A DNA stretch of 64,000 bases from Eledone cirrhosa (lineage: Eukaryota), in NCBI GenBank assembly GCA_964016885.1, contig OZ024741.1:236220001-236284000 (forward strand). Reading direction: 5' to 3'. The position numbers and the translations under genes were made by a program. The notes under the pieces were generated by a model, which was not told where the DNA came from, searched no databases, and saw only the letters and a list, made by a program, of their open reading frames with translations. Shown here piece after piece: positions 591 to 61,203 of this stretch. Within the stretch, counting starts at the first letter, position 1. Every line of letters begins with the position of its first letter.

Positions 591-2658
591 ATTTAAATGA
601 ATATATATAATGAAATGCATTTTGAAGTTTTTTAAATGGCTTAGAAGAGGAGGAAGCTGGAAGCTGCATCCTTGAGACAGGTGGAAGTCCCTAGACTAGA
701 GATATGGTCTAAATACTTGCAACAAGACAGGTTTTCACACATTTTTCATCTACTAAATTTCAGACAGGGCTTTGGCTGATCTGCAGTTAAGGTAGATAAC
801 ACTTGCTGAACATTGTTATACAGGGATGGGATTGAACAGAAACCAATATAATTGTGAAGCAACATCTTTAGCTAAGCAGCCATTTGTTTGGCACTCTACT
901 CCTATAATAATGACAATAACAACATCACTAACAGAGACATAAAGTTAGTTGACATGCTTTGTAATATATCAACCCTAGTAGTTAACTGGTACCATCATTA
1001 TCATTTTACATCTGCTTTTCACATGCTAGCAGCATGAGTTGGGCAGGTTATTATGGTCCAAGGTAGTTTTTATTGAGGTGGGGGGTGGGGGACCACACCA
1101 CACTTATACATTCTATTTTTGACATCATTACTACGGCTGGATGCCCTTCCTAATACCAACACTTCCACAGAGTGTACTGGGTGCATTTTATTGTAGCATC
1201 ATTATAGAGTGGTTGTTTTGTTCCTAGATGGCAAAAAGAATCCTCTCCACACCAGTTAACTGGTATTGTATTATATTATAAATCCCCCTGGTATTGCATT
1301 ATAAACTAGTGTGACAACTACTGATTTGTGGATCCCATGGTTTGCTGGTAACATAGACCCCAGTAATATACTGGTACTGTATTATATCAACCTCAATAGT
1401 TAACTGGTACTACATTGTAGACCCCACAGTAGCTAAATAGTCCTGTATTATATTGAATATGGAAAGATGAAGTCAACTTAGGCTGAATTTGAACTCAGAA
1501 TATAAAGGGGCATAACTCAGCACAGTGTCTGCTGCTGTTCTACTGATTCTGCACCCACCCCCACCCATGCACCAATAATAATTGTTTCTACGTTTGGCAC
1601 AAGGCCAGCAATTATCCCAGTGTATTACTAATAAAGTACCAGTAATACACTGGAATAATAGAAACAATTGTTATTGGTGCACGGTGGGGGGTGGGTGGGT
1701 GCAGAATAATAATAATAATAGTCATTTGTAACACAGGCAGCACAAGAACACAGAATTTTTGTGAAGTGGAATGTAGTTAATGTAATAGACCACTGTGTTG
1801 GCTTGGGCCCTCAACATCTGATGGAGAGACAGGCACACTATGATCACAGTCTCTCAGATATCACCATGATCTCAGACAACTTGGCAGAGCCCAACCTTCT
1901 CTGGGCCTGACCACAGCCAGCTTTTTTCCACAGAGTGAGAAAGGAGGGAGTAGAGATTGAATACCAATACTTATGTATACTTTATTTTATCACCCAATAA
2001 AAGCATGAAAAGCAAAGCCGACTTCAGCAGGATAGCTCATTGAGGAGGGAGATCTGTTGTAGAGTGAACCAATAACCAAAGCCTTGACCAGCCCAGCTTT
2101 CTTTATGCATATCAAAAATTATTGAAATAGTAGCTGGTGTGATCTGAGGGAGATTTAGCTACTATCTCTTTTTAGCAGATCAAGCAGTCCTCACAGAGAC
2201 CACATCTCTCCATCTGCCCCCCCCCCCGCCCGCCCCCAATGCTTGCCTATGATGATCTCTAATGTGGGCACAAAGCACCACAAACCCCGGGGGGGGGGGG
2301 GTATTTGCTTTAACCCACATCCCGTAACAACATGAATCAAAAGAGTTGAACAGAGAAAATACATTAGTTTATAATGAAATCTAAAGACATTGATAATAAA
2401 CAATATATTACATTTATCAAAAATACATTAATCGCAACAACAAAAACAATAATGATAATAATGATAACAATAATGATAGGCTCAGCCAAATCCATATTAA
2501 TGATCAACAAATATTTGCTAATATTGAATTGTTTTTTGATAATGAGTCGTTAACAGATGAGCCTAATTAATTCCCCATTAATCAATTATGAGTAAATATT
2601 TGTTTATATCCTACATAGGAAGAGGTGGGATGGGGGCATGTGTGTATGAATGTATTTG

Positions 2659-5499: not shown

Positions 5500-5836
5500 T
5501 TGATTGGCAGAATCGACAGAGCGTCAGACAATGTGCCTTGCGGTATTTCATTACAGGCCTTTACGTTCTGAGTTCAAATTCCGCCAAGATCAACTTTACC
5601 TGTCATCCTTCCAGGGTCGATCAAATAAAGTCAAACACTGAGTGAGAGAAGAGGTTCATTTAATATTTTTATAAAAGACGGCAAGGCTCAAGGAAAGAAA
5701 TTGTTTACTGCGGACTGTTTCTTTTTGTTTTTTGCAGAATCCCTATAGTGACAAACAAAATGTTTTGCAATATTCAATTTGGGCCCTTTACGTTCTGAGT
5801 TCAAATCCTGCTGAAGTCAACTTTACCAGGGTCGAT
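5500..5836 (+). mobile_element. Two partial OK-type SINE copies
   Basis: 'ttacgttctgagttcaaattccgcc..tcaactttacc' B-box/core near 5561 and 5788. Confidence 0.7.
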
Positions 5837-9708: not shown

Positions 9709-9740
9709 AATGTAATCTGAGTTTTTCGAATATTAATAAT

Positions 9741-9926
9741 TGTTTCTACTTTTAGGCACAAGGCCAGCAATTGCCCAGTGCATTACTGGTACTTTATTTT
9801 ATCGACCCCGTAAGGATGAAAGGCAAAGTCAACCTCGGCAGGATTTGAACTCAGATCGTAAAGGGACGTAACTATGCTGGAAAGCCTGGTGTCCGACCCT
9901 CTACCGATACTGCCAATTCACCGCCC
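9741..9926 (-). mobile_element. Full-length OK-type tRNA-derived SINE with 15-bp TSD
   Basis: A-box-like tggcagtatcgg, B-box gagttcaaatcc; TSD TCGAATATTAATAAT at 9726-9740 and 9927-9941. Confidence 0.9.
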
Positions 9927-10139
9927 TCGAATATTAATAATAACATTCGATTCGTTTGCAATTATGCAAACAAGCCTCAATTTTATAGCCATGTCAGTAG
10001 AATGAACCTTTCACTCTTGCTCTTGTATTGGCATGTGAACACTGTTGTTTCTTGGTATCACCCTTCATCAGTACAGCTCACTGTTCACTTGCCAAACTGT
10101 CAGAGCTAGTGAAAATATATGCTATTTTCAAAAATACAC

Positions 10140-14898: not shown

Positions 14899-16136
14899 AA
14901 GAGTTACGCAGGGTTCTCCATTCAAAATGGCTACCGAATGCAGTGGGCACATACATTTCTCAAGTTTCCATCCAAAATCTACACCCAGTTTTCCGCCAAG
15001 ATCATAAAGCAGAGAACTTTATTTCCCCTGCCTGGTGTATAGATACGACGGTTTGAGAATGATTGAGGCCATTAGCAAACATGAGAGACACCCGAAGGAA
15101 GCCGGCGGATACAACAATAATAACGCTAATCTGAATAAACCAAGCGGCAAATTGCCAGACGTTAGGGCGTAGAAGTCAACATGTCACTGTATTTGTTCCG
15201 GTTCACTGCGTTCTGAGTTCAATTATTATATATATTTGTAATAATAATAATAAGTAAGCCGGAACGAAGTTACAATTTAGCATTTTATCCTGCCGTCACC
15301 ATCCATACTCATATCACCTCCAACCCTAGCCTCTCTATCCCGTCACCTAGCACCCCCTTTCCTCTCCCCACCACTGAATCTGGACACGCTTGCCCAACCA
15401 CCTTGACCCCTCCGCTCCGCCACTTTCACTCCCTCACGTCCCTGCACTGTAGTCACCATACTCCAGGACCTACCACTCTCCGAAGCCGGCTCTCATCCTT
15501 GTTCCCGTTCCCGCTGCAACACTTGTCCCTTTATTTCCATCCTCACCACTCTTACAGGCCCTAACGGGTCCGCCATTCCTTCACCTGAACATCCACCCAC
15601 GTTGTCTATGCCCTCCGGTGTTCCCTTTGCGGGTCTTTATATATCGGACAAACGGGACGCCGTATGGCAGACCGTTTTGCCGAACATTTGAGGGACATAC
15701 GACTTGGTTTGGATACTCCTGTCGCCCGTCATTTCTGTTCTCCTGGTCATTCTTCCCTACATGTTTCAGTCTTGGGTGTCCTTTTACATCATGGATCACA
15801 GGCCTCGCGCACCAGGCCTCAACAAAGTCTGATTCACCGCTTTGGGTCCTATTCCCCTCTTCGACTCAACTCACCTCCCCAATTTCTCTAATACCCCGTC
15901 CATTATCACACCCCTAGATTCCTATCACTTTCTCTTGATCATTAGCAGCTTCTCTTACAACTAATACAGGCCGACTATATATGCTCACTCCACTTTTCCC
16001 TTCACTGCTCTGTATACACACATACACACCCTTATATTAACATACTTTTGCTCATAGCTTCGTACTTACATGCACACACTCTTTTACTCACATATATATA
16101 CACACCTTTCTTCTTAGCTACGTACGGACGTATAAT

Positions 16137-16263
<127 letters not shown>

Positions 16264-16491
16264 CCTTACACACGTGCATAAGTATAGCTTCTTTTATAAA
16301 ACGGTATTTTTTCCATTTCAGGTAGCCGCGTTCCATCATCCACTTTTCTAAAAAACAAATCATACACAAAACGCCAGCACCAACAGTTTTGCAAGAGATG
16401 TCAACATGAATGGACCTGTTATTTTTTATCTAAAGACTTTTTTCAAATTCCATCCCGCCCGTCCCCTTAATCTATCTTATTTCTCATTCTT

Positions 16492-16527
16492 TCTTCTGAT
16501 GAAGGACTAGCGTCCGAAACGTTAAGA
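16492..16527 (+). ncRNA. Minimal type-I hammerhead ribozyme (pLTR)
   Basis: tctt CTGATGA a GGAC tagc GTCC GAA ACGT t aaga; palindromic stem III ACGU. Confidence 0.85.
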
Positions 16528-17443
16528 CCCTCTTCCTGTTATATCAAGCTTTAACCTAATATATCCCTTCCATATACTGTACCGATTGTGTTGTTGTTTC
16601 TGTTTACCTTTTACATACATATATATATATATACCAACGCTTACGTGGACCTCTCAAAATTCGTTGGATTTTCTGATTGGATTTTCAACCCGGAACTGGA
16701 TACCAGCCCGCAGTACACCTGAACTTTCACCAGGAAATCTTTCGTATCTTTGAAATTTTCTTTGCTTCTTGCATTTAAGTATTCCACGACTCTCTACCAC
16801 TTTTCCTCTACTACAATCTTCTTACACCACCTTCTCACCCGTCTATTTTTCACTGCCACCCTAGTACCTTCAATATGCCCAAACTCAAATCTTTTCTCCG
16901 CCAGCTCCATTCTACTCTCAGACGCTTCCTACAACCCCCCCCCCCCCCCATATGCATCCACTCCTCCCTGCATCTCTCCAACCTCATCTTCACCAAAACA
17001 TGATACAACAGTCACATCACATTTTTAAGTCGCTGTCTCCACCACCACCTCATTTCCCGCGGTTTCCGCATCAAGTTTAACCCCACCTCTTACTCTGCTC
17101 CCACCACTGAGCCCATCCTTACCCGCTCCTTTCGCCAGATCATGCGGGCGACCATTCGATCAGCTCTCACCCAAATCCGTTCTCTCGACCGAGATCTCCC
17201 CAAGGCCTACCTCCATCTCTCCTCCACTTGCCACCCTTTCCTCGCCCAATCCTTTATCCAATTCAGCCTTTACCTCAATCGCCTCCTTTTCAATTTCCTC
17301 ACTTCCGTAAAAAACCACAAACTCGACTTTCTCCGCTCATCGCCTGCCGTTACCACCCATACTCATATCACCTCCAACCCTAACCTCTCTATCCCGTCAC
17401 CTACCACCACTTTCCTCTCCCCACAACTGAATCTGCACGCGCT

Positions 17444-18121
17444 TTGCCCAACCACCTTGATCTCTCCACCTCCCCCTCTTTCACTCCCTCACGTCCCTGC
17501 ACTGAAGTCACCAAACCCCAGGACCTACCACTCTCCGAAGCTGAACACTCCTTTCTCGCCCGTGGTTTGCGTTTTATACCAACCACATCTACCTGCGACG
17601 AGTTCCGCACACGTGCCGAGACTGAAGGGTTCTTCCGTCGATTAAAGCTGAAAGTTTTTTTTCACGACACGCCATCATCGACACAGACGGATGACTTCCC
17701 TCGTCTCAGTCGCCGGCAATCACATTGGACGCCGAGCACTGGCTAGTTCAGCACCCTCGACTCTTTTGTCGATACTTGCTCTAATGGGTCTTTCCGTATC
17801 CGCCATTCCTTCACCTGCACATCCAACCACGTTGTCTATGCCCTCCGGTGTTCCCTTTGCGGGTCTTTATATATCGGACAAACGGGACGCCGTTTGGCGG
17901 ACCGTTTTGCTGAACATTTGAGGGACATACGACTCGGTTTGGATACTCCTGTCGCCCGTCATTTCTGTTCTCCTGGTAATTCTTCCTTACATGTTTCAGT
18001 CCTGGGTGTCCTTTTACATCATGGATCACAGGCCTCGCGCACCAGGCCTCAACAAAGTCTGATTCACCGCTTTGGGTCCTATTCCCCTCTTCGACTCAAC
18101 TCACCTCCCCAATTTCTCTAA
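17444..18121 (+). pseudogene. PLE N-terminal domain fused in frame to GIY-YIG endonuclease (RT deleted; one TAG at 17744)
   Basis: ORFs 17444-17746 and 17894-18121 share a frame and are separated by a single stop. Confidence 0.75.
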
Positions 18122-18623
18122 TACCCCGTCCATTATCACACCCCTAGATTCCTATCACTTTCTCTTGATCATTAGCAGCTTCTCTTACAACTAATACAGG
18201 CCGACTATATATGCTCACTCCACTTTTCCCTTCACTGCTCTGTATACACACATACACACCCTTATATTAACATACTTTTGCTCATAGCTTCGTACTTACA
18301 TGCACACACTCTTTTACTCACATATATATACACACCTTTCTTCTTAGCTACGTACGGACGTATAATACCACACACACACACACACACACACACATGCTTA
18401 CGCACGTGCATAAGTATAGCTTCTTTTATAAAACGGTATTTTTTCCATTTCAGGTAGACGCGTTCCATCATCCACTTTTCTAAAAAACAAATCATACACA
18501 AAACGCCAGCACCAACAGTTTTGCAAGAGATGTCAACATGAATGAACCTGTTATTTTTATCTAAAGACATTTTTTCCAATTCCACCCCACCCGTCCCCTC
18601 AATCTATCTTATTTCTCATTCTT

Positions 18624-18659
18624 TCTTCTGATGAAGGACTAGCGTCCGAAACGTTAAGA
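18624..18659 (+). ncRNA. Minimal hammerhead ribozyme (second pLTR copy)
   Basis: Identical to 16492-16527; a CCGATGA variant lies at 20521-20552 (-). Confidence 0.85.
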
Positions 18660-18764
18660 CCCTCTTCCTGCTATATCAAGCGTTAACCTAATATATCCCT
18701 TCCATATACTGTACCGATTGTGTTGTTATTTCTGTTTACCTTTTACATGCACATATATATATAG

Positions 18765-28515: not shown

Positions 28516-28580
28516 TATTTTGTCTGATGAAGGCATACCATAATTTAATTTGGTATCCCTGAAATATGTATAATGAAATA
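28516..28580 (+). ncRNA. Hammerhead ribozyme
   Basis: tattttgt CTGATGA AGGcATACCA..TGGTATcCCT GAA ATAtgTAT A atgaaata. Confidence 0.8.
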
Positions 28581-29330: not shown

Positions 29331-29803
29331 TTATTTATTTACCAGTGTGCATTTTCACGTCACCGTTGAAACGGAGTGAGCTCAGCCGTCGGGCACTAAC
29401 CTTTAACTATACACTCTACTTTCGCAAGTATCGAGTATTGAGGTGAATATGGACTTACTAGTCTAACTGGTAACTTCCTATCTATCTATCTATATATATA
29501 TATATTCATTTTATTAACGCTAAATAGTGGGCCTTGTTACCAGAGGCTAATTTTCGCCTTATTGTAGTTTTTCCAAATTGAAGGATGAGTATTTTAGACT
29601 TTATTTTATCATGAGTTATTGATTTTTCCCTGGATTTCACTAAATTCTGTTGGATGAATCTATATCCTGATTCTTTTTGAATTGAGTTTGAATTATTTTT
29701 CCCACATCTTACGTTAATTATTTTCCCATTTTGACGCTATAGTCACTTATATATTATGGAATACTATTGGCTTCTTGCTACAATATGTTCTATACTTTTC
29801 ATT

Positions 29804-29841
<38 letters not shown>

Positions 29842-29842
<1 letters not shown>

Positions 29843-30145
29843 TAAAAGATGGTTAAAGAAGTTCCATATATTTTATTATGCGCATTTCGAAAACAAAATC
29901 ATCCTGGGGCAAAAATTATGTTCACATCAGATAAAATAAGGTAACTTTCCTGTTGACAAGTGTTTTTTGGCCTCGTATCATGTTACCTTATTTTATCTGA
30001 TGAGAAGACAATTTTTGTCCCAGGATGATGTTGTTTTCGAAATGCGCATAATAAAATATATGGAACTTCTTTAACCATCTTTTAATTTCTTCTTTAATAT
30101 ATACTCCAGTTCTACCAATTGTTGAGTGCTACTTATCTGATATAT
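29842..30145 (+). mobile_element. Fold-back pLTR-type element
   Basis: ~104-bp inverted arms 29842-29945 / 29982-30085; relative at 54877-55010. Confidence 0.8.
29989..30058 (+). ncRNA. Hammerhead ribozyme
   Basis: TATTTTAT CTGATGA GAAGACAAT..GTTGTTTTC GAA ATGCGCAT A ATAAAATA; homologue at 54901-54972 (-). Confidence 0.85.
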
Positions 30146-30557: not shown

Positions 30558-31300
30558 CACGAAAATGTCGCTGAATTTCGCGGATTGATACCGATCACGC
30601 AACTGTAAACCATTTTTACATATAACAGTACGACGATTGTTTTATTATATTGAAATAAACGATGTATATGATTTTACATAATTACAAAGCTCATATTTTA
30701 CCCAAACAAATATGCTGACAATATAAAATGTATAGCTGTCAAAATTCAACACATACACACCTATATCTCTACTACTTAATTGCATTCGTTGGCGGTTCGC
30801 CTTACCGCGGTATCATGTGGTACCCGCGAGGGTGCTTGGTTATTCCGGCGCCTTAGCTTCGCTATCACCCGAGGTAAGCTGCCAATGTGTTGGCTTACCT
30901 CAAAAAGTATTTGAGGGAGACTCCTGCACTCCTTGTGGTGTGTGACTTAATATTTTCTTTCGTTTTAATTCTATATTCTCATGTGAAATGTTTATGTAGT
31001 ATATACCAGAGATATATGTGCGTACAAGTCACAGTATATATGACAAATAGAATGAGTCTGGCTAATATAATAAAGTAGATATTGATTTGATTAAGGAGTT
31101 CGCTACGCAAACAGCTGATTTTGGGTTCAGTCGTGCTTCTTGGCACCTAAGTTAAGTGTCTTCTACTATAACCTCAAGTTACCCAATGTCTTGTGTGTGG
31201 AATTTTGTAGATGGAAACTGCAGAACTGTGGTTAAAAAAAATTGAGGCTGTTTACTTGTAAACAAACCGAATATTAATAATGTTATGATATTATAACATT

Positions 31301-31490
31301 AGTAGATTGGCAGTATCGGTAGAGAGTCGGACACCATGCTTTGAAGCATAGAGTTACGTCCCTTTATGATCTGAGTTCAAATCCCGCCGAGGTTAACTTT
31401 GCCTTTCATCCTTACGGGCTCGATAAAATAAAGTACCAGTAATGTACTGGGTAATTGCTGGCCTTGTGCTTAAAATAGAAACAATTATTA
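31301..31490 (+). mobile_element. OK-type SINE
   Basis: Near full-length match to 9741-9926. Confidence 0.85.
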
Positions 31491-33029: not shown

Positions 33030-35294
33030 TATGGGATAACAAATTATCGTTATAGGTAATCCAGTTAGAGGTTGTGAATACTCCGTATTGTGGATAGTTT
33101 TAGCGTACGGCGTTGTTTCACTCAACAAGAGGTTTCCTTAGGCAGCGAGTTTGCGAGTCCTCGGGAATTCCTATGCTGGTTAATCTTGGAGTAATAATAG
33201 TGAAAGAGTGAAGAATAACATGGTCAACAGTACAAAAAGGGTTTTATTTACAGTATTAACAATTGTTTCATTGATTAAGTTATCTAAAAAGTTCATGCTT
33301 ATCTTCTAACCTAGAGATTTTTAATGAACACGCTAACTACTACAACATAGCTTTACTTAAGGCAGACCACAAAGAGAGGCTCAAATACATACCAGATACG
33401 AACAACAACACACTTAACAGCAATAACACCACCCACACCTATAGAAATAACAAATATAGGACTAAACCTAGAAATAGACAACGAGCACCAGAAATAAATG
33501 AACCGAATACTAATATAAGGACCCCTAGGAACTATAGAAAATCCAGAGATAAGGAATACTTATGGTTCAATCCAATATATAACTCCTCTATAAAAACCAA
33601 ACTACCTTCTATATTCTTTAAATTAATTGACAAGCACTTCCCTAAACTTCACAAATACCAGAAAAACTATCAAACTATCTTACTCTACTGCAGCCATACA
33701 TAAAATTAACTATAAAAGAATCTCTAATGAAAATAACCTACAAACAAACACCATAACACCAAACATCGCAACCACACACACGTCAGAATGCATCACAACA
33801 AAACATTAACAAACCCAAATCTCAGCCCATACATAACAACATACAAAACTGCATCGATGAACCAGCACACAGGAAGGCCTCAAAATGTAACTGTCATTTA
33901 CCGGATAAGTGCCCACTACAAAATAGATGCCTGGGATCAAATATAGTGTACCTGTGTACTATTAATTCAGGCAACTTAGCATGGCACTAGATAGGTTCTA
34001 CGGCGGGGGAGTTCATAAAAAGATGGTACGTCCACAGACATTCTATAAAGAACCGTAGACTAATGAATACAACAACGCTCGCCAATAAAATCTGGCAGCT
34101 TAAAGATACAAACCAGGAATATGGGATTAGCTGGTCGAAACTGTCAGGGGCAAAGGCCTACAAAAATGGAATGTCCCACTGTGGACTTCGTAATATGGAG
34201 TTGCTCCATATTTTAAAATATGACAAAATGCTGCTTAACAGCAAAATAGAACGGTCAATTTTCTGTAGGCATAAAGCTACTAAATTCGCTAATTTTAAAC
34301 CAACTTGATTCGACCCAACACTTCCATAATTCAAACTCTACCACCTGAGTCTATAACCCGTTATTATTATTATAAATTGTCAATTAGGGCGGTGGATTGG
34401 CAGTCGGACATCATGCTTTGCAGCATAGAGTTACGTCTCTTTACGATCTGAGTTCAAATCCTGTTGAGGTTAACTTTGCCTTTCATCCTTACGGGGTCGA
34501 TAAAATAAAGTACCAGTAATGCACTGGGATAATTGGTGGCCTTGTGCCAAAGGTAGAAACAATTATTATTAACTGTCAATAAACCAACTAATCACTGAAT
34601 GAACATCATAACCTCCTAACTTTTCGTTCTTTCATTCTCTTTCCCTAAATATATTTGACCTCTTACATTATATCCTATCGTATTCTCTTCACTTCTAACA
34701 TAACTTCCAATTTATTAATTTATTAATTTATCCTGTATTTAGCACTGTACTATTTCTTCATAATATAATTTAACCAATACACATATATGTATATATTTAG
34801 TATTTTCATGTTTATACCATCACATCTTTATATTTTAACCACCACCACCACCACCACAACTATTTTCAACAATCATATTATGTTCACTTTTCTTCACACA
34901 CTAATACATTTTTTACTTATTTTTTATCATCTTCATTCTAACTTATTTATTATTATTTATTTATTATTTTTTCTTTATCTTTTATCTTTTTTCTTTTTTC
35001 TCTTTTCTTTTTTCTTTTTCTCTCTCTTTTTTTTTTCTTTTTCTCTCTCTCTTTTTTTTCTTTTTCTTTCTTTATTACTGATGTTGTGATTTGAATTTTT
35101 CTAGTATATTACAAACGCCGTGCATAATTTTAATCAGTTTTTCCGATGATTTGATTAAGCATACATTGTATTTAAAATTGAGTGACAGAACTTCAAGTGA
35201 TTAGCAATTTTTAGGCAACTTAATCAATGAAACAATTGTTAATACTGTAAATAAAAGCCTTTTTGTACTGTTGACCATGTTATTCTTCACTCTT

Positions 35295-43325: not shown

Positions 43326-43330
<5 letters not shown>

Positions 43331-43735
43331 TATAAATATTAATAAAATAGATGTTCTTTTGATCAATTACATTTTATTATACATCTTTCGGATGTACAAC
43401 AGTACGTAGGTACAATAGTACGTCCTCATCAGACAAAATATAATGATACATGACATACCCTGAGATGTTAAATGATTAAATCTTAACCATTTAACATCTC
43501 AGGGGTATGTCATGTATAATTATATTTTGTCTGATGAGGACGTACTGTTGTACCTACGTACTGTTGTACATCCGAAATATGTATAATAAAATGTAATTGA
43601 TCAAAAGAACATCTATTTTATTAATATTTATATTTTATATATTAATAACTCCGGAAAATTATTTTTTCGTAGAGTGCTTCCAATCTACTGTAAAACTCAT
43701 GATATACTCATTGAATATTGTTTAACACTTTAATA
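43326..43735 (+). mobile_element. Fold-back pLTR-type element (~150-bp arms)
   Basis: Arms ~43326-43479 / 43483-43637; single-arm copy at 60944-61190. Confidence 0.85.
43522..43594 (+). ncRNA. Hammerhead ribozyme (also 60991-61047)
   Basis: ATATTTTGT CTGATGA GGA.GTAC tgtt GTACaTCC GAA ATAtgTAT A ATAAAATGT. Confidence 0.8.
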
Positions 43736-43748
43736 TATATATATATAC

Positions 43749-43791
<43 letters not shown>

Positions 43792-43792
43792 C

Positions 43793-43824
<32 letters not shown>

Positions 43825-43825
<1 letters not shown>

Positions 43826-45266
43826 AACAATTAAGTTAAAAATGTACATCCACATATGTATACTGAAATACTAGTATGCATATGAATACACACACGTATA
43901 CATATGTAGATGTACCGAGTTTTTCACTGGTCACTTTACTGTGAGTGTCCAGCTATTCTGTATGTAAACACACAGACAAACCGGTTTTTAGAGTCATACT
44001 GGTTTTTGAGGAAACACCTTTCCTCTATTCTCCAGAAAGCCAGACAAGGAATATTGAACTAGTTTTGATGTTGTTACATCTCATCAGCAATATTTACCTA
44101 TCTTCCGGCCTCTCTAGAGAATCGTAAAAGCACATATCGTTATATGCTTTTTCTATGAAAATTAGTAGTGGGCAGACTAATTTGCATAGAGCGTGAGTAC
44201 GTACCGGTTCAACGGAGACGATAAAAACAAATAACGAAACGAAATTAAATTTCGTTTCGTTTGTAACTCACTTTTGTATGACTGACGCTTAAACAATTAA
44301 GTTAAAAATGTACATCCACATATGTATACTGAAATACTAGTATGCATATGAATACACACACGTATACATATGTAGATGTACCGAGTTTTTCACTGGTCAC
44401 TTTACTGTGAGTGTCCAGCTATATGTGCTTTTACGATTCTCTAGAGAGGCCGGAAGATAGGTAAATATTGCTGATGAGATGTAACAACATCGAAACTAGA
44501 TCAATATTCCTTGTCTGGCTTTCTGGAGAATAGAGGAAAGGTGTTTCCTCAAAAACCAGTATGACTCTAAAAACCGGTTTGTCTGTGTGTTTACATACAG
44601 AATAGCTGGACACTCACAGTAAAGTGACCAGTGAAAAACTCGGTACATCTACATATGTATACGTGTGTGTATTCATATGCATACTAGTATTTCAGTATAC
44701 ATATGTGGATGTACATTTTTAACTTAATTGTTTAAGCGTCAGTCATACAAAAGTGAGTTACAAACGAAACGAAATTTAATTTCGTTTCGTTATTTGTTTT
44801 TATCGTCTCCGTTGAACCGGTACGTACTCACGCTCTATGCAAATTAGTCTGCCCACTACTAATTTTCATAGAAAAAGCATATAACGATATGTGCTTTTAC
44901 GATTCTCTAGAGAGGCCGGAAGATAGGTAAATATTGCTGATGAGATGTAACAACATCGAAACTAGTTCAATATTCCTTGTCTGGCTTTCTGAAGAATAGA
45001 GGAAAGGTGTTTCCTCAAAAACCAGTATGACTCTAAAAACCGGTTTGTCTGTGTGTTTACATACAGAATAGCTGGACACTCACAGTAAAGTGACCAGTGA
45101 AAAACTCGGTACATCTACATATGTATACGTGTGTGTATTCATATGCATACTAGTATTTCAGTATACATATGTGGATGTACATTTTTAACTTAATTGTTTA
45201 AGCGTCAGTCATACAAAAGTGAGTTACAAACGAAACGAAATTTAATTTCGTTTCGTTATTTGTTTT
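43825..45266 (+). mobile_element. Retrozyme-like tandem array, 466-bp unit, ~1.8 sense units plus ~1.3 inverted 5' units
   Basis: Period 466 (44431 vs 44897); inversion junction ~44420; one HHR per unit; flanked by (TA)n. Confidence 0.85.
44930..44974 (+). ncRNA. Hammerhead ribozyme of the 466-bp unit (intact copy)
   Basis: AATATTG CTGATGA GATGT aaca ACATC GAA ACTAGT T CAATATT; copies at 44464-44508 (U16.1A) and 44050-44094 (-; G12A) carry core mutations. Confidence 0.9.
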
Positions 45267-45297
<31 letters not shown>

Positions 45298-45321
45298 TAT
45301 ATATACTGCCAAGACTGGAAT

Positions 45322-45361
<40 letters not shown>

Positions 45362-45382
45362 CATATACATGTATATATATAT

Positions 45383-45472
<90 letters not shown>

Positions 45473-45493
45473 ATATATATATATGTGTATATG

Positions 45494-45601
<108 letters not shown>

Positions 45602-45616
45602 CATATATATATATAT

Positions 45617-47735
45617 AATGAAAAATTTGAACAGGGACAGAACAGAGAGGCAGTACAATAAATGTTTATTAAATTCACGCTCAGGAGAGTGGGGGGTAGG
45701 TGGGGGACGACGTTTCGGGCATAAGCTCTTCCTCAGGTGGGAAGTGTGTGGGAACAGAGTTCAAAAGGTGTGTAAGGGGAGTGGTGGAGAGACATATAGC
45801 GAAAGGAAACGGTGCGAATGAAAAATTAACAAATAAAGACAAAAATTATAAAAACAAAAAATATAAAAAATTAAAATAAAGCATGATCAAAATACAAGGA
45901 ACGAGAAAATTTAAAAATAAAGGCATGATCAAAATAAACTGAAATTAAAAGGGGGTAAACAGGTGGTGGAAGGGTGTGGGGTGAGTAGGGGTGGTGGCGG
46001 GTGGAGTGGGGAGAGGGAGACGGGGTGTCCGAGCGGGGAGGGCTGAAGGTGGTGTGTGTGTGTAGGTGTGCGTGTGTGTGTGTGTGTGTGTGTATGTGAA
46101 AGTGAGGGTTGGGGGAAGAACGGGGTTGCATGTTCAGGAAGAGGTGTGTGTGGGGGTGTTTATGTGGGTCGGAGTGTCTGTGCGTGTGTGGATAGGGGGT
46201 GGGGGGAGAGGAATCAGGAGGCTGAGGGTGTAAATATGTGGTGGGAAGCACGTGTGTTTGGGGTTTAAGCGTGTTGTGGGTGTGGGTGGCGTGTGGAGAA
46301 AAAATTTTTTTTTGGGGTGTGTGTGTGGGTGAGTTATATAGGTGATGGTGTAAGAGGATGGTTGAAAAGTTGGTAAGTTCCAAGGATGTTTGGAGATTTG
46401 GTTATAAGTCAATTTCTGCGTGTGGGTAATCCATGAAGCGGTGGTCGGAAGAGGAGAGATGTGGGGTGCACGCGCAACAGGAAGTGGTCAGCAGTGGGAG
46501 TGCTGTGGTCAGAAGGGCATAGCAGCAGTCGGTGGAATGGTAGGGAGGCGAGGATGGGTAGGTGTGAGAGTTGGAGTGAGGTGGGTATGTGTGTGTGTGT
46601 ATTAGTAGGGGTGTTAGTGGGATGAGTGGGTGTGGAGCGGGGGTGTGGGTGGAGCGGGGAGAGAAGGGTGTGTGTGGTTCTATGGAGGGAGTGTGGTGTA
46701 CTGGTGTGTGTGTAGTTTGGTGAAGAGGTGTTAGTGGGTGTTAGTATACGGGAGGTGGGGAGGGGTGGAATGCGGGTGTGAGTGGGGGTTAGTGGTGGTA
46801 GGGTGTGTAGAGTTGGTGGTGTACGAGGGTGTGTGGGTACGTGTGCGTGGGGTTGGGGGGTGTTAGTGATGTTAGTTGCGTGTGGGGTGGGTGGTGTAAG
46901 TGGGTGCGTGTGTGCGTGTGATAAGGAGGGGGAGGGGGAGAAGAGGGGAGGGGAGGGATGTTAGTATGTTAGTTGGGGAAGGGTGGTCAGATGAGGGGTG
47001 GAGTGGAGGTGTTAGTATTGTTAGTGTGGGGTGGGCGGTGAAAAGGAGGGGTGTGTTCGTGGTGTTAGTGGGGGATAAGTGTGGGGGGAGGGGGGCGGTC
47101 GAACGCTAAAGGAATAAGGGTGGGGAGTTCAGGCCGGGGGGAGTGTGGGTCTGTAAGATGAAGATAGTTCGTTGTTCGACCGTAAGGCGATGGGCGGGTG
47201 TTCCGTGGCACTGGAGTAGGCCACAGACTGTGAGATGGCGTGCGGAGTGTCCAGGGCCACCAAAGTGGCGGGCGATGGGGGAACTGCCCCCGAGACGAAT
47301 ATCCCGGAGGTGCTCCGTGACTCGGTCCTCCAGGCGACGTCCCGTCCGTAGACTAGGTTGGAGGAGGTGCAGCGGAAGGCATGCCGGACCGAGAGAGAGT
47401 GGCCGTTGGGACCCTGGAAGGTGGTGGTGTTGGTGATGTGGGGACAGGTGTTGGAGCGGGGCCTAGAACAGGGGAAGGAACCGGGGGGGGAACAGAGCGT
47501 GGGTTGGGGGGTAGGGAGCTGTGGACGAGGAGGGTGCGGAGATTGCGTGCGCGTTTGAAGGAGGGGAGTGGTGGGGTTGGGAAGATGTGGGAGGTGGAGG
47601 GGTCGGACTGGAGGCGTCGGAAGAGGCGGCGGATGGTGCGGTGGAGGGGTAAGGTGGAGGGGTGGTAGGTGATGGGGAAGGGGAGACGGTGGGTGGGTGT
47701 GCGGTGGCGTGGGGTGAGGGTGGTGGAGCGGGACG
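45617..47735 (-). mobile_element. Neptune-type PLE 3' portion (linker, Zn-knuckle, damaged GIY-YIG, CA-rich 3' UTR/pLTR)
   Basis: RLPFPITYHP..FKRARNLRTLLVHS; PCSRPRSNTCP; RRLEDRVTEHLRDIR..PIARHF; HHR at 45707-45738. Confidence 0.85.
45707..45738 (-). ncRNA. Minimal hammerhead ribozyme
   Basis: ac CTGAGGA a GAGC ttat GCCC GAA ACGT C gt. Confidence 0.7.
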
Positions 47736-49512
47736 TGGGTGTTTCAACCTTACATTTGTAGACAATGTTACTAGAGAGGCATTTCCCGGATAGGGGGCAA
47801 TCAACCCGATTCCTACAATTACAGTTATTACTAACTACAGGATTGCACGTGTCCCTACGGCTAGGTAGTTTAGCTAAATTTGAAGCTGTGATGTTATGTG
47901 CAAGGTTAGAAGTCGTAGAGTAAGAAATTTTAATAGTATTTCTATTAAAAATGTTACTATATTTATGTGTAGAGGGAAAATGCTTCGTAATAAGGGAAAA
48001 AAAGATCTTAGCTAATGGTGTGGCCACCTCCATATTATATGGTGGGTTATACCAACAAATGCGACGGGATCTATTTCTTCTAGGTCTATTTTCGTACTCT
48101 GTATATGCTACCTTATCGACAAATCCACTCCGAGCAAGAGCTTCATCGTAATAAGTGGAATGGTCGTTGAAAATATGCTCGTTAGTAGATAGACGGGAAA
48201 GCCTCAACGAAACGTTTCTTACCAGGTTCTTGGTTATGCTGGCAGGATGGTTGGAATGCTTACTTATGTAATTAAGCGTATCATTCGGCTTTCTATACGG
48301 GTAATACAACCCATTCAATAAATTGAGGGTAACGTCGAGGTAATTAACGACCGAGAGATTGGCCTCAACCTGTATAGAGAGGTTGAAGCCTTTAAAGAAG
48401 GCTGTGAGTTCTTTTCTGAACCTGTCGCAATCACGAGGTCCGTACTTAGTCATGGTCAAAAGACCATCATCACGGCACAAACCACCGCCCGCGTTGGGGA
48501 ATTCGTCCTTGATAGAGAAAAGAAGGAAAAGGCCGATAAGATCAGTAACCTCCGCAGCATCACTGGCGCCCATACTCACGTCGAATGGGGTACTATTGGA
48601 TTTTTTAATCCAAATAGAGTCATCGAAATTAATCACCGACTTACGGGCATTGAGGATGACATCAACTTCGAAATCCTTAACCACTGTGAGTGTTTTAGCG
48701 AAATTGATAGCTGTAAGGAGAAGTAGTAAAGTGATGGAGGAGTAGTAATTGTTGATGTCGAATTGGATAAAACGGCAATGTTCCTTGTTGCATATGCCGT
48801 TGAACCAATCAATCACCGCGAAAGAATTGTTCCACAGTGCAAGAGGGGCCCAACTTCTAATTTCAGGTATAATTCTATCAAGAATCGTTTTACTAAGTCT
48901 ATCTAAATCGGACTTGGTAGGGTTAATAAGCCGAATAGAGGGGTTGTTCGGAAAATTGGATTTGTGATCCTTCAGGGTAAAGTGGGGAGAAATAGGGTCC
49001 AGAGGTTCGGTCCGGTCCAGGATGTTGAGATCAGATGTAATTTTAAACCCAGCATCGTTGATTTCATTGATGACGCACCGATTAGTTTGACGGTAATCCT
49101 TAGTTACAGCATTATGTAGTAGTTGATGGTAAGTACTGCGCTCCACTTGATATAGGTTGCCAGTTTTGTCGGAATGGACGTGCACGGCATTAGAATCCTT
49201 AATAGAACGAATTCTGTTCTTCAGGTCCTGCTGGAAGGAATTGCTCCTATTTCGAAATTTGATACTCTGAATGAGTTCCAAGACAACATTTTCGAAGGGT
49301 AGCAATGCTGGGTTACACGGGGGATTATTATAGGTTTTAAATCCAAATTTATCCTGTTTGTTGTCTGCTTTACGCGGATTATGGAAATAAAAGGCACGCC
49401 AACGCAACCTTTTAATGAACGCGTCTGTTTTCTGTATCAGGAGTTTTAGGTATGTTTTCCTGCTTGGTACGGGTATGTTCTTTGTAGAAATATTCAGATG
49501 TTGTTTCTGCAT
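47353..49512 (-). CDS. Naiad-type Penelope-like reverse transcriptase (719 aa), C-terminus replaced by Neptune-type sequence
   Basis: STKNIP, DKTGNLY, TLKDHK..RLINP, FDINNYYSSI, MGASDAAEVTDLIG, GLCRDDG (YRDD to CRDD), NYLDVTL, SNHP, WYNPPY, CxCx5Cx5C knuckle; GIY-YIG truncated after IVYKC. Confidence 0.9.
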   Translation of the reverse strand: MQKQHLNISTKNIPVPSRKTYLKLLIQKTDAFIKRLRWRAFYFHNPRKADNKQDKFGFKTYNNPPCNPALLPFENVVLELIQSIKFRNRSNSFQQDLKNRIRSIKDSNAVHVHSDKTGNLYQVERSTYHQLLHNAVTKDYRQTNRCVINEINDAGFKITSDLNILDRTEPLDPISPHFTLKDHKSNFPNNPSIRLINPTKSDLDRLSKTILDRIIPEIRSWAPLALWNNSFAVIDWFNGICNKEHCRFIQFDINNYYSSITLLLLLTAINFAKTLTVVKDFEVDVILNARKSVINFDDSIWIKKSNSTPFDVSMGASDAAEVTDLIGLFLLFSIKDEFPNAGGGLCRDDGLLTMTKYGPRDCDRFRKELTAFFKGFNLSIQVEANLSVVNYLDVTLNLLNGLYYPYRKPNDTLNYISKHSNHPASITKNLVRNVSLRLSRLSTNEHIFNDHSTYYDEALARSGFVDKVAYTEYENRPRRNRSRRICWYNPPYNMEVATPLAKIFFSLITKHFPSTHKYSNIFNRNTIKISYSTTSNLAHNITASNLAKLPSRRDTCNPVVSNNCNCRNRVDCPLSGKCLSSNIVYKCKVETPTSRSTTLTPRHRTPTHRLPFPITYHPSTLPLHRTIRRLFRRLQSDPSTSHIFPTPPLPSFKRARNLRTLLVHSSLPPNPRSVPPPVPSPVLGPAPTPVPTSPTPPPSRVPTATLSRSGMPSAAPPPT

Positions 49513-49750
49513 GATGAATATAAGTCAATAGAGTGCTCAACCGAGGGAGCCAAATAGTAATAATAATAAATTTGAAGACTAAAATCCAAAGAGGGCTCGA
49601 TAAGGATAAATATATATCAAATAAATAAGAACCGTAGAGCAAATATTTATTAAAATAACACACTGGGATAATTGTTAGTTTCAGAAGATCCCGTTAAGGG
49701 TGAAAGCAGCGATTCTTTGCTTAAACTTTAATCTGTTATTTTAATAAATA
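49513..49750 (-). mobile_element. Naiad 5' leader plus inverted pLTR fragment
   Basis: 49678-49750 is a pLTR segment in opposite orientation; identical to 20829-20901. Confidence 0.8.
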
Positions 49751-49881: not shown

Positions 49882-49919
<38 letters not shown>

Positions 49920-49922
<3 letters not shown>

Positions 49923-50131
49923 TAACCTCGGCGGGATTTGAACTCAGACCATAAAGGGCCGTAACTCTTTGCTGCAAACATGGCGTCCGACCCGCTATCG
50001 GTACTGCCAATCCACCGCCATTCTCTAATAATAATTGTTTCTACTTTTGGCACAAGGCCAGCAATTACCCAGTGGATTACTGGTACTTTATTTTATCGAC
50101 CCCGTAAGGATGAAAGGCAAAGTTAACTATA

Positions 50132-50375: not shown

Positions 50376-50810
50376 TTTTAAAAAGTAAACAGAACAAAAA
50401 AGAGAAAAACGAAGAGGCAGTACAAATGATATTATTATTAGAGAATGGTGGTGGATTGGCAGTATCGATAGAGGGTCGGATGCCATCTATGCAGCATAGA
50501 GTTACGGCCCTTTATGGTCTCAGTTCAAATCCCGCCGGGTTAACTTTGCCTTTCATCTTTACGGGGTCGATAAAATAAAGTACCAGTAATACACTGGGAT
50601 AATTGCTGGCCTTGTGCCAAAAGTAGAAACAATTATTATTAGAGGGCGGTGGATTGGCAGTATCGGTAGAGGGTCGGACGCCCTGCTTTGACGCATAGAG
50701 TTACGGCCCTTGCCATTCTGAGTTCAAATCCCGCCGGGGTTAACTTTGCCTTTTATCCCTACGGGGTCGATAAAATAAAGTACCAGTAATACACTGGTTA
50801 ATTGCTGGCC
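49920..50810. mobile_element. Cluster of young OK-type SINEs (partial tandem on - at 49920-50127; tandem pair on + at 50441-50810)
   Basis: High identity to 9741-9926. Confidence 0.85.
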
Positions 50811-50892
50811 TATATATATATGTGTGTATATATCTATATATCTATATATATGTATGTATAGGTATGTATATATATATGTGTGTGTGTATGTG

Positions 50893-54334: not shown

Positions 54335-54845
54335 GTATATGTTGGTTGTATACCAACACCTCAGTATGCAGAATGGAGCACTCGACGAAGTGCGGCAGAT
54401 TGGTTTGGTTACTCCGGAGTAATGTAAAATAAAATAAAATAAATAAGTCAAATGTTTAAAATTTAGCTTCGTTTATTACTGCTATATATATTTCGGTGAC
54501 AGCCATCTTTGGCTGTGACCTCTTCAGGCAGTCCGAATTAGTGTGGTATAGACAAGTACATATGTTGTTGAGGTGTATAACTTTGTCAATAACTTTGATT
54601 CCAGTTCCTCAGTGAAATAACAACCCAACCAGGAACTGGGCATATCAGAGTATTGACAAAGTTATACACCTCAATAACATATGTACTTGTCTCTACCACA
54701 CTAATTCGGACTGCCTGAAGAAGTCACAGCCAAAGATGGTCTCACCGAAATATATATATAGCAGTAATAAACGAAGCTAAATTTTAAACATAAATGAAGC
54801 TAAATTTTAAACATAAACGAAGCTAAATTTTAAACATTTTATTTT
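54335..54845 (-). mobile_element. Fold-back pLTR-type element (~160-bp arms)
   Basis: Arms ~54452-54609 / 54631-54791. Confidence 0.85.
54478..54532 (-). ncRNA. Hammerhead ribozyme (mirror copy 54710-54765 +)
   Basis: ACTGC CTGAAGA GGTcACAGCCA aaga TGGCTGTcACC GAA ATATATAT A GCAGT. Confidence 0.85.
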
Positions 54846-55464
54846 ATATATATATATGTATATATAATATAAGATCAAAAGATGGTTAAAGGAGTTCCAT
54901 GTATTTTATTATGCGCATTTCAAAAACAAACATCATCATGCAATAATATTTGTGTTTTCATCAGATAAAACAGGAGAACATGATATGAAGGCTAAAAAAC
55001 ACTTGTGGATAGTGCAGTTTTAAATCAACATATAATGTGTATATATATACATATACACACACATATAATCATACATATATATACACGTACATACACACAT
55101 ACATACACATATATATACACGCATACATACGCACACACATATATAGATATATGTACCCACACCTACATACGCACACACAATTAATTATAATAAAAAATAA
55201 TAATAAAAATAAAAAATAAAAATAAAAAACAATGGACAACCATATGATGTAAAAGGCCGTCACATCAAAATAAAAAAAAAAATATATATATATATACGAC
55301 TTAAGAAAATAAAAATAAAAATTATTATAAAGTTGACAGCGATACAGGAAGGGACGCAAATAAATGAACAAACACGCGTGATAAGCAATACACACATTTA
55401 CACATACACATACATACATACATATAAATATATACATACATACACACACACATATACACACATA

Positions 55465-55492
<28 letters not shown>

Positions 55493-55498
<6 letters not shown>

Positions 55499-58400
55499 TA
55501 TGTACACGTACATACATATATGTATACCGACGTACAGTAGTATGTATATATATATATACATACATGCACACATATATATATGCACGTATGGATTCACCGA
55601 ACATTTATTATAATGCTCGGTGTGTTTGTAAACAAACATCCCGTATTAAGCCGTAGTGTCTAGCAACCACCGTTGCTCGTTTGTTCAACACTGACAAAGG
55701 AACGCTGTACTAGTTTCAAGCTTGTTAGCTATCGTCAGCAACGTATACCTTCCTGCCAGATTGTTGAACGTATATACTTACCTTATGCATATTGACGGCC
55801 GAGTAGCCCAATATGCATATCGAGTGGGTTAATCGGCCGGGTGCACCGAAAACGATAAACGGAAAAAATGAAACGATATTTCATTTCCCACTCTTAGTAC
55901 GGCTGTTACTTAAATATAAGTATGTACACGTACATACATATATGTATACCGACGTACAGTAGTATGTATATATATATATACATACATGCACACATATATA
56001 TATGCACGTATGGATTCACCGAACATTTATTATAATGCTCGGTGTGTTTGTAAACAAACATCCCGTATTAAGCCGTAGTGTCTAGCAACCACCGTTGCTC
56101 GTTTGTTCAACACTGACAAAGGAACGCTGTACTAGTTTCAAGCTTGTTAGCTATCGTCAGCAACGTATACCTTCCTGCCAGATTGTTGAACGTATATACT
56201 TACCTTATGCATATTGACGGCCGAGTAGCCCAATATGCATATCGAGTGGGTTAATCGGCCGGGTGCACCGAAAACGATAAACGGAAAAAATGAAACGATA
56301 TTTCATTTCCCACTCTTAGTACGGCTGTTACTTAAATATAAGTATGTACACGTACATACATATATGTATACCGACGTACAGTAGTATGTATATATATATA
56401 TACATACATGCACACATATATATATGCACGTATGGATTCACCGAACATTTATTATAATGCTCGGTGTGTTTGTAAACAAACATCCCGTATTAAGCCGTAG
56501 TGTCTAGCAACCACCGTTGCTCGTTTGTTCAACACTGACAAAGGAACGCTGTACTAGTTTCAAGCTTGTTAGCTATCGTCAGCAACGTATACCTTCCTGC
56601 CAGATTGTTGAACGTATATACTTACCTTATGCATATTGACGGCCGAGTAGCCCAATATGCATATCGAGTGGGTTAATCGGCCGGGTGCACCGAAAACGAT
56701 AAACGGAAAAAATGAAACGATATTTCATTTCCCACTCTTAGTACGGCTGTTACTTAAATATAAGTATGTACACGTACATACATATATGTATACCGACGTA
56801 CAGTAGTATGTATATATATATATACATACATGCACACATATATATATGCACGTATGGATTCACCGAACATTTATTATAATGCTCGGTGTGTTTGTAAACA
56901 AACATCCCGTATTAAGCCGTAGTGTCTAGCAACCACCGTTGCTCGTTTGTTCAACACTGACAAAGGAACGCTGTACTAGTTTCAAGCTTGTTAGCTATCG
57001 TCAGCAACGTATACCTTCCTGCCAGATTGTTGAACGTATATACTTACCTTATGCATATTGACGGCCGAGTAGCCCAATATGCATATCGAGTGGGTTAATC
57101 GGCCGGGTGCACCGAAAACGATAAACGGAAAAAATGAAACGATATTTCATTTCCCACTCTTAGTACGGCTGTTACTTAAATATAAGTATGTACACGTACA
57201 TACATATATGTATACCGACGTACAGTAGTATGTATATATATATATACATACATGCACACATATATATATGCACGTATGGATTCACCGAACATTTATTATA
57301 ATGCTCGGTGTGTTTGTAAACAAACATCCCGTATTAAGCCGTAGTGTCTAGCAACCACCGTTGCTCGTTTGTTCAACACTGACAAAGGAACGCTGTACTA
57401 GTTTCAAGCTTGTTAGCTATCGTCAGCAACGTATACCTTCCTGCCAGATTGTTGAACGTATATACTTACCTTATGCATATTGACGGCCGAGTAGCCCAAT
57501 ATGCATATCGAGTGGGTTAATCGGCCGGGTGCACCGAAAACGATAAACGGAAAAAATGAAACGATATTTCATTTCCCACTCTTAGTACGGCTGTTACTTA
57601 AATATAAGTATGTACACGTACATACATATATGTATACCGACGTACAGTAGTATGTATATATATATATACATACATGCACACATATATATATGCACGTATG
57701 GATTCACCGAACATTTATTATAATGCTCGGTGTGTTTGTAAACAAACATCCCGTATTAAGCCGTAGTGTCTAGCAACCACCGTTGCTCGTTTGTTCAACA
57801 CTGACAAAGGAACGCTGTACTAGTTTCAAGCTTGTTAGCTATCGTCAGCAACGTATACCTTCCTGCCAGATTGTTGAACGTATATACTTACCTTATGCAT
57901 ATTGACGGCCGAGTAGCCCAATATGCATATCGAGTGGGTTAATCGGCCGGGTGCACCGAAAACGATAAACGGAAAAAATGAAACGATATTTTATTTCCCA
58001 CTCTTAGTACGGCTGTTACTTAAATATAAGTATGTACACGTACATACATATATGTATACCGACGTACAGTAGTATGTATATATATATATACATACATGCA
58101 CACATATATATATGCACGTATGGATTCACCGAACATTTATTATAATGCTCGGTGTGTTTGTAAACAAACATCCCGTATTAAGCCGTAGTGTCTAGCAACC
58201 ACCGTTGCTCGTTTGTTCAACACTGACAAAGGAACGCTGTACTAGTTTCAAGCTTGTTAGCTATCGTCAGCAACGTATACCTTCCTGCCAGATTGTTGAA
58301 CGTATATACTTACCTTATGCATATTGACGGCCGAGTAGCCCAATATGCATATCGAGTGGGTTAATCGGCCGGGTGCACCGAAAACGATAAACGGAAAAAA

Positions 58401-59058
58401 TGAAACGATATTTCATTTCCCACTCTTAGTACGGCTGTTACTTAAATATAAGTATGTACACGTACATACATATATGTATACCGACGTACAGTAGTATGTA
58501 TATATATATATACATACATGCACACATATACATACTACTGTACGTCGGTATACATATATGTATGTACGTGTACATACTTATATTTAAGTAACAGCCGTAC
58601 TAAGAGTGGGAAATGAAATATCGTTTCATTTTTTCCGTTTATCGTTTTCGGTGCACCCGGCCGATTAACCCACTCGATATGCATATTGGGCTACTCGGCC
58701 GTCAATATGCATAAGGTAAGTATATACGTTCAACAATCTGGCAGGAAGGTATACGTTGCTGACGATAGCTAACAAGCTTGAAACTAGTACAGCGTTCCTT
58801 TGTCAGTGTTGAACAAACGAGCAACGGTGGTTGCTAGACACTACGGCTTAATACGGGATGTTTGTTTACAAACACACCGAGCATTATAATAAATGTTCGG
58901 TGAATCCATACGTGCATATATATATGTGTGCATGTATGTATATATATATATACATACTACTGTACGTCGGTATACATATATGTATGTACGTGTACATACT
59001 TATATTTAAGTAACAGCCGTACTAAGAGTGGGAAATGAAATATCGTTTCATTTTTTCC

Positions 59059-59059
<1 letters not shown>
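55493..59059 (-). mobile_element. Retrozyme-like tandem array: 7+ near-identical 422-bp units plus ~1.25 inverted units
   Basis: Marker ggaaaaaatg at 55861, 56283, 56705, 57127, 57549, 57971, 58393; inversion at ~58530; one HHR per unit; (TA)n flanks. Confidence 0.92.
55702..55744 (-). ncRNA. Hammerhead ribozyme of the 422-bp unit (repeats every 422 bp up to 58234-58276; + copy at 58753-58795)
   Basis: ACGTTG CTGACGA t AGCT aaca AGCT t GAA ACTAGT A CAGCGT. Confidence 0.88.
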
Positions 59060-59127
<68 letters not shown>

Positions 59128-60910: not shown

Positions 60911-60946
<36 letters not shown>

Positions 60947-61203
60947 TAAATCTTAACCATTTAACATCTCAGGTTAAGTCATGTATCATTATATTTTGTC
61001 TGATGAGGAGGTACTGTTGTACATCCGAAATATGTATAATAAAATGTAATTGATCAAAAGAACATCTATTTTATTAATATTTGTATTTTAATATTAATAA
61101 CTCTGGAAAATTAAATCCATAGAGTGCTTCCAATCTACTGTAAAACTCATTCTTCGATATACTCATTGAATCTTGTTTAACTCTTTAATATATATATACA
61201 TAT

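Follow-up and report, generated by a model that had tools for sequence, protein, structure and literature searches.

The tandem element at 43824-45269 of the window (the whole 64-kb stretch of Eledone cirrhosa DNA that was analyzed) is a very young insertion, and we consider it probable that it represents a retrozyme whose insertion was due to a Penelope-like enzyme, which used the two cut strands of a (TA)n target as primers at two fixed sites, likely with one small RNA circle as template. For the question of how animal retrozymes are copied into DNA and inserted, this family offers thousands of young insertions under a strict two-site rule. The class of the element is already known, and the new contribution of our analysis is the end rule of the retrozyme; no such paired-end rule for retrozymes was found in the freely available main texts that were searched. 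The locus itself is otherwise unremarkable and probably a dead-end copy, and the value of the family lies in the mechanism to which its ends point.

Organization of the Insertion

Self-comparison of the window delimits an insertion of 1,448 nt, corresponding to 3.1 units with a period of 466. The preliminary description had placed about three units of this period at 43825..45266 and had noted an internal inversion. Both observations hold, with the span refined to 43824-45269, and the inversion turns out to be an entire inverted arm, as the two arms are joined head to head with an overlap of 2 nt. The left arm (43824..44422, minus strand) comprises 599 nt or 1.29 units and runs from unit position 268 round to 400, with its sense 3' end at 43824 (site B). 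The right arm (44421..45269, plus strand) comprises 849 nt or 1.82 units and runs from unit position 87 round to 3, with its sense 3' end at 45269 (site A). Both 5' ends meet at the inversion junction (44421..44422), the position of which is free to differ among insertions of the 466-bp family. A complete unit with strong self-pairing is found at 44801..45266 (plus strand). The insertion is flanked by (TA)n target tracts on the left (43733..43825) and on the right (45267..45617), and a target-site duplication is unreadable in the TA run.

The units are arranged head to tail without an LTR layout, and the GC content is approximately 36% in 44001-45000. The longest stop-free frame in the circularized unit has 60 codons, and the unit therefore has no coding capacity.

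A DNA search with the unit in its own genome (3.0 Gb) gave full-length matches that were 97-100% identical among the 40 of 206 candidates that were scored. Pattern counts over the whole genome indicate a family of at least 7,758 units (counted by intact flanks of the hammerhead 3' half), with 7,701 intact hammerhead 3' cores and 0 hits for reversed controls, and its arrays range from <1 to >30 units in length.

Hammerhead Motifs, Age and Selection on the Core

A motif scan identified three type I hammerheads in the insertion, all with a 7-bp stem I, a 5-bp stem II and ACUAGU after the core GA, in line with the textbook hammerhead of the preliminary description. One is an intact type I motif (44930..44974, plus strand) with predicted cleavage after 44967 and a palindromic helix III (ACUAGU). 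As had also been noted, the other two carry different core mutations: U16.1A in the copy at 44464..44508 (plus strand; T>A at 44500) and G12A in the copy at 44050..44094 (minus strand; G>A at 44066, in a CpG context). The unit copies of the insertion differ at three unit positions only (158, 166, and 192), and at position 192 the last copy has an A where the family majority has a G. An apparent hotspot at this position was mostly an artefact, best hits having been taken to a query bearing the rare base.

Rfam at gathering thresholds gave 0 matches in the whole 64-kb window, and the hammerhead call therefore rests on the motif scan and on covariation (see below). It is not a chance occurrence of the motif, since the 22-nt 5' half of the hammerhead has 2,656 exact copies in the genome and its reversed control has none.

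G12 and U16.1 are essential for the hammerhead, and excision of a monomer takes two consecutive intact hammerheads. These are absent at 43824-45269 and present at many other loci of the family, and by the above rules the locus is probably unable to release a monomer. Li et al. (Li, Clavereau and Pollet, 2026; bioRxiv 10.64898/2026.07.22.740005) likewise require no fewer than two intact hammerheads in succession for an element to count as active, and the form with a palindromic helix III is described as requiring dimers (PMC4209133).

Two core hits among three private substitutions have a post-hoc chance of about 0.0015, which is unusual at one locus, yet expected at a few loci in so large a family, and both core changes are most likely chance hits after insertion. 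A CpG hotspot was considered as a cause of G12A, which is carried by three sampled insertions, and was rejected, as the rate at CpG sites is just slightly higher (25/8,944 vs 256/116,528 in the sampled insertions). Host selection against the minus-strand ribozyme is also unlikely, because seven intact minus-strand hammerheads are present 12 kb away and one is present at 43366-43444.

Genome-wide, six core positions are changed in 57 of 7,758 units (0.73%), compared to 387 of 7,441 (5.2%) for six control positions, so that the core is approximately sevenfold less variable (odds ratio 0.13, matched pattern counts), with the reservation that array units are non-independent and that the control may take in subfamily variants. 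The enrichment of core mutations raised in the preliminary description was rejected, as the sample shows an odds ratio of 0.46 (p = 0.23) and the genome shows depletion. The core is intact in 253 of the 261 hammerheads in 65 sampled insertions, which is an upper figure because the sample was chosen partly by exact hammerhead match. In 30 insertions both partners of a stem II pair are exchanged, position 17 is either U or C, and the variants that spread therefore respect the ribozyme. The ribozyme core is retained by selection, in a pattern as predicted for selection on source copies.

These data bear on the alternative that the locus is an older insertion from a decaying or inactivated family, as had been proposed at first. 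It could draw on the core changes in two of the three hammerheads, and on the fact that two of the three substitutions fall in the core, but we consider it very improbable: the copies carry only 3 private substitutions in 1,448 nt (0.2%), the divergence within the insertion is 0.41% compared to a median of 0.66% in 26 two-armed insertions, the majority sequence is identical to that of another insertion, and at the level of the family most sampled hammerheads are intact and core changes are depleted. What stands of the proposed inactivation is the narrow point that this locus is probably without monomer release.

Retrozyme Class and the Related 422-bp Array

By every sequence criterion tested the 466-bp family is a non-LTR retrozyme, its cleavage and circularity being predicted. 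Similar to animal non-LTR retrozymes (Cervera and de la Pena, 2020; PMC7229834), it is non-coding, low in GC, self-paired and arranged head to tail, with one type I hammerhead per unit, and both are found in thousands of copies in genomes that also contain Penelope-like elements. In contrast, the unit of 466 nt exceeds the 170-400 nt RNAs reported for animal retrozymes (PMC7229834). The inverted arms and fixed paired ends are features of the 466-bp family, and the word "inverted" occurs 0 times in the text of PMC7229834 that was covered. Non-LTR retrozymes accumulate as RNA circles in coral, mussel and axolotl (PMC7229834, PMC7761336); for the 466-bp family such circles are predicted.

Penelope-like elements have been proposed as mobilizers of retrozymes (Cervera and de la Pena, 2020, PMC7229834; PMC7761336). 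Vertebrate retrozymes, of the same class and with the same proposed mobilizer as the 466-bp family, have unit lengths of 51-972 bp, their arrays are ascribed to local amplification, and their link to Penelope-like elements consists of co-occurrence and likeness to pseudo-LTRs (bioRxiv 10.64898/2026.07.22.740005). The 466-bp family differs in having a Penelope-type footprint and no pseudo-LTR likeness that we could find, and the words "tail" and "initiation" occur 0 times in the portion of the vertebrate preprint that was covered.

A second array in the window, with a unit of 422 bp, is located at 55489-59064 and consists of 7.2 units on the minus strand and an inverted arm of 1.35 units, with eight intact hammerhead motifs. 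The 422-bp unit is a colinear homolog of the 466-bp unit, with a similar fold, a similar two-end pattern and a tail of approximately 60 nt. The earlier assignment of both arrays to one element class is thus supported, because the units align end to end and have a common fold and end architecture. A hammerhead signature common to the two families is found 22,104 times genome-wide, with 0 hits for the reversed control. Within the 422-bp array, 2 substitutions are found over about 3,500 nt, and this array may be a little younger than the 466-bp insertion, the substitution counts being too small for the two to be ranked by age.

RNA Fold of the Unit

The predicted fold of the 466-bp unit is far more stable than that of shuffled sequences (z = -10.4; 0 of 100 shuffles equally stable), and in the alignment of 23 units from both families 93% of the cells at predicted pairs are paired. 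Compensatory change was observed in 26 of 100 predicted pairs across the same units and includes stems I and II of the hammerhead, with most covarying pairs reflecting one split, that between the 466-bp and the 422-bp family. For the structure of the unit in the window itself, 25 of 153 pairs change on both sides, compared to 4-8 when partners are slid.

A long-range helix is formed by 45025-45032 with 45207-45214 (plus strand) and shows compensatory changes between the families. A small hairpin at 45189..45202 (plus strand) has a stem that is invariant in 23 of 23 aligned units, and the ends at site B (unit 392-400) fall in its loop and 3' arm. The tail between sites B and A (45201..45269, plus strand) is about 70 nt long, occurs at only one of the insertion's ends, and contains a 13-bp hairpin (45229-45257, plus strand).

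Paired Ends and Target

The ends were analyzed in 65 insertions, which were the best matches of the genome search together with the first-listed places on contig C1 from the pattern counts, after merging of overlapping loci. Three loci (L003, L004, and L005; G000:C1:217.38-217.59 Mb) represent one insertion found three times with identical flanks, about 100 kb apart, reflecting a segmental duplication or an assembly repeat, and L004 and L005 were dropped as duplicates of L003.

Site A corresponds to unit position 3 and site B to unit position 392-400, about 70 nt upstream of A. Both outer ends could be classified in 41 of the 65 insertions, and these were always paired: 21 were B/A, 20 were A/B, and neither A/A nor B/B was observed. 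The classifier is motif-based, and in 5 of the 41 the second, short arm was called by motif only, one of which (L172) is doubtful. The remaining 24 comprise 19 insertions with one unclassified end and 5 that extended beyond the DNA examined. The inner ends are scattered, with 1 of 92 located within 5 nt of the hammerhead cleavage site. Most examined insertions are flanked by (TA)n. Direct repeats of 12-14 nt flank three of the 24 listed insertions (L003, L085, and L179), and the other 21 lie in TA runs in which the length is unreadable. By analogy, the two-end pattern matches the footprint expected of a Penelope-type insertion.

Spread as a satellite at the DNA level, through unequal crossing-over or DNA circles and with an incidental ribozyme, could be suggested by the longest arrays. 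Arrays of 7 to >30 units (L012, L061-L062, L079, and L188-L189) contain variants that recur every 2, 3, or 6 units, a periodicity typical of local duplication. We give next to no weight to this explanation as a whole, as it leaves the fixed paired ends, inverted arms, target duplications and RNA-structure selection unexplained. It is unlikely for dispersal and stands only for later array growth: judged by these periodic variants, the longest arrays likely grow later by local duplication and turn into higher-order satellites.

Relation to Penelope-Like Elements

Penelope-like insertions contain an inverted 5'-truncated copy and a tail of 30-40 nt at one end, and their target is often (TA)n (Craig et al., 2021; PMC8557442). 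In purified form, one Penelope-like protein cleaves AT-rich DNA on both strands and begins reverse transcription from two internal RNA sites, between which the tail is located; a dimer of the protein has been predicted (Frangieh et al., 2024; PMC11167929). The 466-bp family resembles these elements in the inverted arm, the one-ended tail, the (TA)n or AT-rich target and the two starts, and Penelope-like elements likewise carry a hammerhead upstream of the start sites (PMC8557442, PMC11167929). Non-autonomous, multicopy head-to-tail forms have also been noted for the Chlamys Penelope-like elements (PMC8557442, PMC11167929). In contrast to Penelope-like elements, the 466-bp family has no ORF, its tail is about 70 nt rather than 30-40 nt, and its arms can reach many units. 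Its start sites are located 230 and 300 nt past the hammerhead cut, unlike those of the published Penelope-like elements.

Autonomous Penelope-like families in the same genome show a two-end pattern like that of the 466-bp family. We refer to them as Hydra-like and Neptune-like, clade names that we presume from resemblance. Tails, as read by eye, measure about 88-96 nt in the Hydra-like families; one Neptune-like family has a tail of about 35 nt together with a TA run. A partner of the 466-bp unit was not found among the three Hydra-like families and six Neptune-like groups sampled, and a BLAST search of the unit against 110 loci with Penelope-like ORFs or fragments identified only separate retrozyme copies or simple repeats. 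Alignment of the 466-bp tail to the ends of six families was no better than that of shuffles (best p = 0.14); for the 422-bp tail the best value was p = 0.018, uncorrected for 12 tests.

Two candidates for a partner were discarded. A match of 30 nt turned out to be antisense ORF sequence, and an abundant neighboring family with a 713-aa ORF has a tail of about 88 nt without likeness to the unit. Three further loci (L221, L222, and L223; G000, C1 and C5) contain open frames of 844-1,096 codons with a GIY-YIG domain at their end, and on this basis are apparently intact Neptune-like elements and candidate partners.

A different possibility is that the unit belongs to an autonomous Penelope-like element as its pseudo-LTR, so that its copies are truncated ends. 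The end architecture is indeed like that of the autonomous families in the genome, and vertebrate retrozymes resemble pseudo-LTRs (bioRxiv 10.64898/2026.07.22.740005). Nevertheless, we find it scarcely credible, as the units are arranged head to tail with no ORF between them, the ends run into (TA)n, and the 110 Penelope-bearing loci matched only separate retrozyme copies or simple repeats, although a rare ORF-bearing master may exist. The preliminary description had pointed to constant attachment of the unit to an ORF as the sign of such a pseudo-LTR; 0 of 20 loci of 9.9 kb have an adjoining ORF of >=200 codons.

Template of the Insertion

Both arms of an insertion nearly always derive from one source. 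At 42 polymorphic sites the arms mismatch in 1.9% of comparisons within 43 insertions, as opposed to 22.1% between insertions, and 23 variants, each seen in a single sampled insertion, are fixed across the two arms of that insertion, in a total of 10 insertions (11 of the 23 occur in one diverged copy). In 20 insertions both arms exceed one unit, and at G000:C1:30.83 Mb arms of 6.9 and 13.0 units have private variants in common and no mutual differences. A cut linear monomer is disfavored as template, because the arms run freely through the cleavage site, with 1 of 92 inner ends close to it, arms exceed one unit and about 20 identical units can occur together. Copying from a monomer circle amounts to a single-unit bottleneck with many passes after it, and the pattern favors rolling-circle copying.

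Alternatively, the template of Penelope-type two-site priming could have been a long multimer, left uncut after read-through of a genomic array, so that a circle was not needed. Uncut RNA is the main substrate of a Penelope-like protein in vitro, and this protein did not require its own hammerhead (PMC11167929); arrays of at least 30 units exist as potential sources. In two insertions (m009 and L076) variants missing from the units upstream are common, in register, to the terminal units of the two arms, and in five more, unfixed variants are shared out of register; as template, a mixed multimer accounts for these observations better than one monomer circle. In two others (L173 and L075) the arms are mixed in haplotype. 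Thus multimer templates, or switches of template, also occur. As a general explanation we nonetheless regard the multimer as rather unlikely. The insertion-private variants fixed in all units of 10 insertions, and the roughly 20 identical units at one locus, demand a single-unit bottleneck, although a very young homogeneous source array could mimic this, and with the core under strong selection long precursors should be cut.

Proposed Mechanism

Priming at two fixed sites on a small circle can be cast in a more specific model of twin-primed rolling-circle retrotransposition, which we put forward tentatively and consider quite possible: one enzyme dimer would act on one hammerhead-made 466-nt circle, with two starts 70 nt apart and many laps. 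Under the probable reading given at the outset, tandem arrays would be transcribed, the hammerheads would cut the transcripts, probably as dimers through the palindromic helix III, and the monomers would be ligated into circles. A borrowed Penelope-like enzyme would cut AT-rich DNA with a stagger of about 12 nt; one target strand would prime at site A and its counterpart 70 nt upstream, at site B, each with 2-3 nt of AT microhomology. Both copies would circle the template and fall off at random points, and joining of the two cDNA ends would yield the head-to-head arms.

If true, the twin-primed rolling-circle model would name the mobilizer of animal retrozymes by mechanism, single out as recognition element the loop of the conserved hairpin together with a U-rich stretch next to a long hairpin, and account generally for the inverted arm and the tail found in Penelope-like elements. 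As the start sites are mapped to a few bases on a conserved fold, the claims on the mobilizer and on the circular template are open to in vitro test.

Neighboring Elements

Several other elements were observed in the window. A different hammerhead element is present at 43326-43733 and 60944-61190, with two short inverted arms, hammerheads on both strands and ends that are about 96 nt apart. It looks like a Hydra-like end piece, with the 466-bp element lying in the TA tract that adjoins it. Another Hydra-like family is represented by end pieces at 29796-30104 and 54837-55006 and also at loci L095 and L076; its two ends are separated by about 90 nt, and it has a canonical hammerhead upstream of its ORF. 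A further hammerhead is located at 28516-28580.

The region 47353-49524 (minus strand) contains a copy of the abundant young Penelope-like family with the 713-aa ORF (when intact), for which 40,580 candidates with a mean nucleotide identity of 98.7% were found. The 3' end of this copy is interrupted by a fragment of another element. Upstream of its ORF the family carries a hammerhead-like motif with an unusual core, and its tail, given above, clearly exceeds the 30-40 nt of published elements. A Pfam search gave no match for the family.

A 199-bp unit is found as a permuted copy of 1.05 units (49918-50127) and as a tandem of 1.9 units (50431-50811), with different end points and (TA)n flanks, and related pieces are scattered over the window (501-591, 1467-1629, 5502-5827, 9731-9984, 31238-31490, and 34386-34571). 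No hammerhead was found in this unit and ARAGORN predicted 0 tRNA genes in the whole window. The unit carries what we take to be a B-box-like motif, and it is possibly a ribozyme-free, tRNA-derived repeat that spread like the 466-bp family. Finally, tandemly duplicated Neptune-like fragments with GIY-YIG remains are present at 15453-18763.
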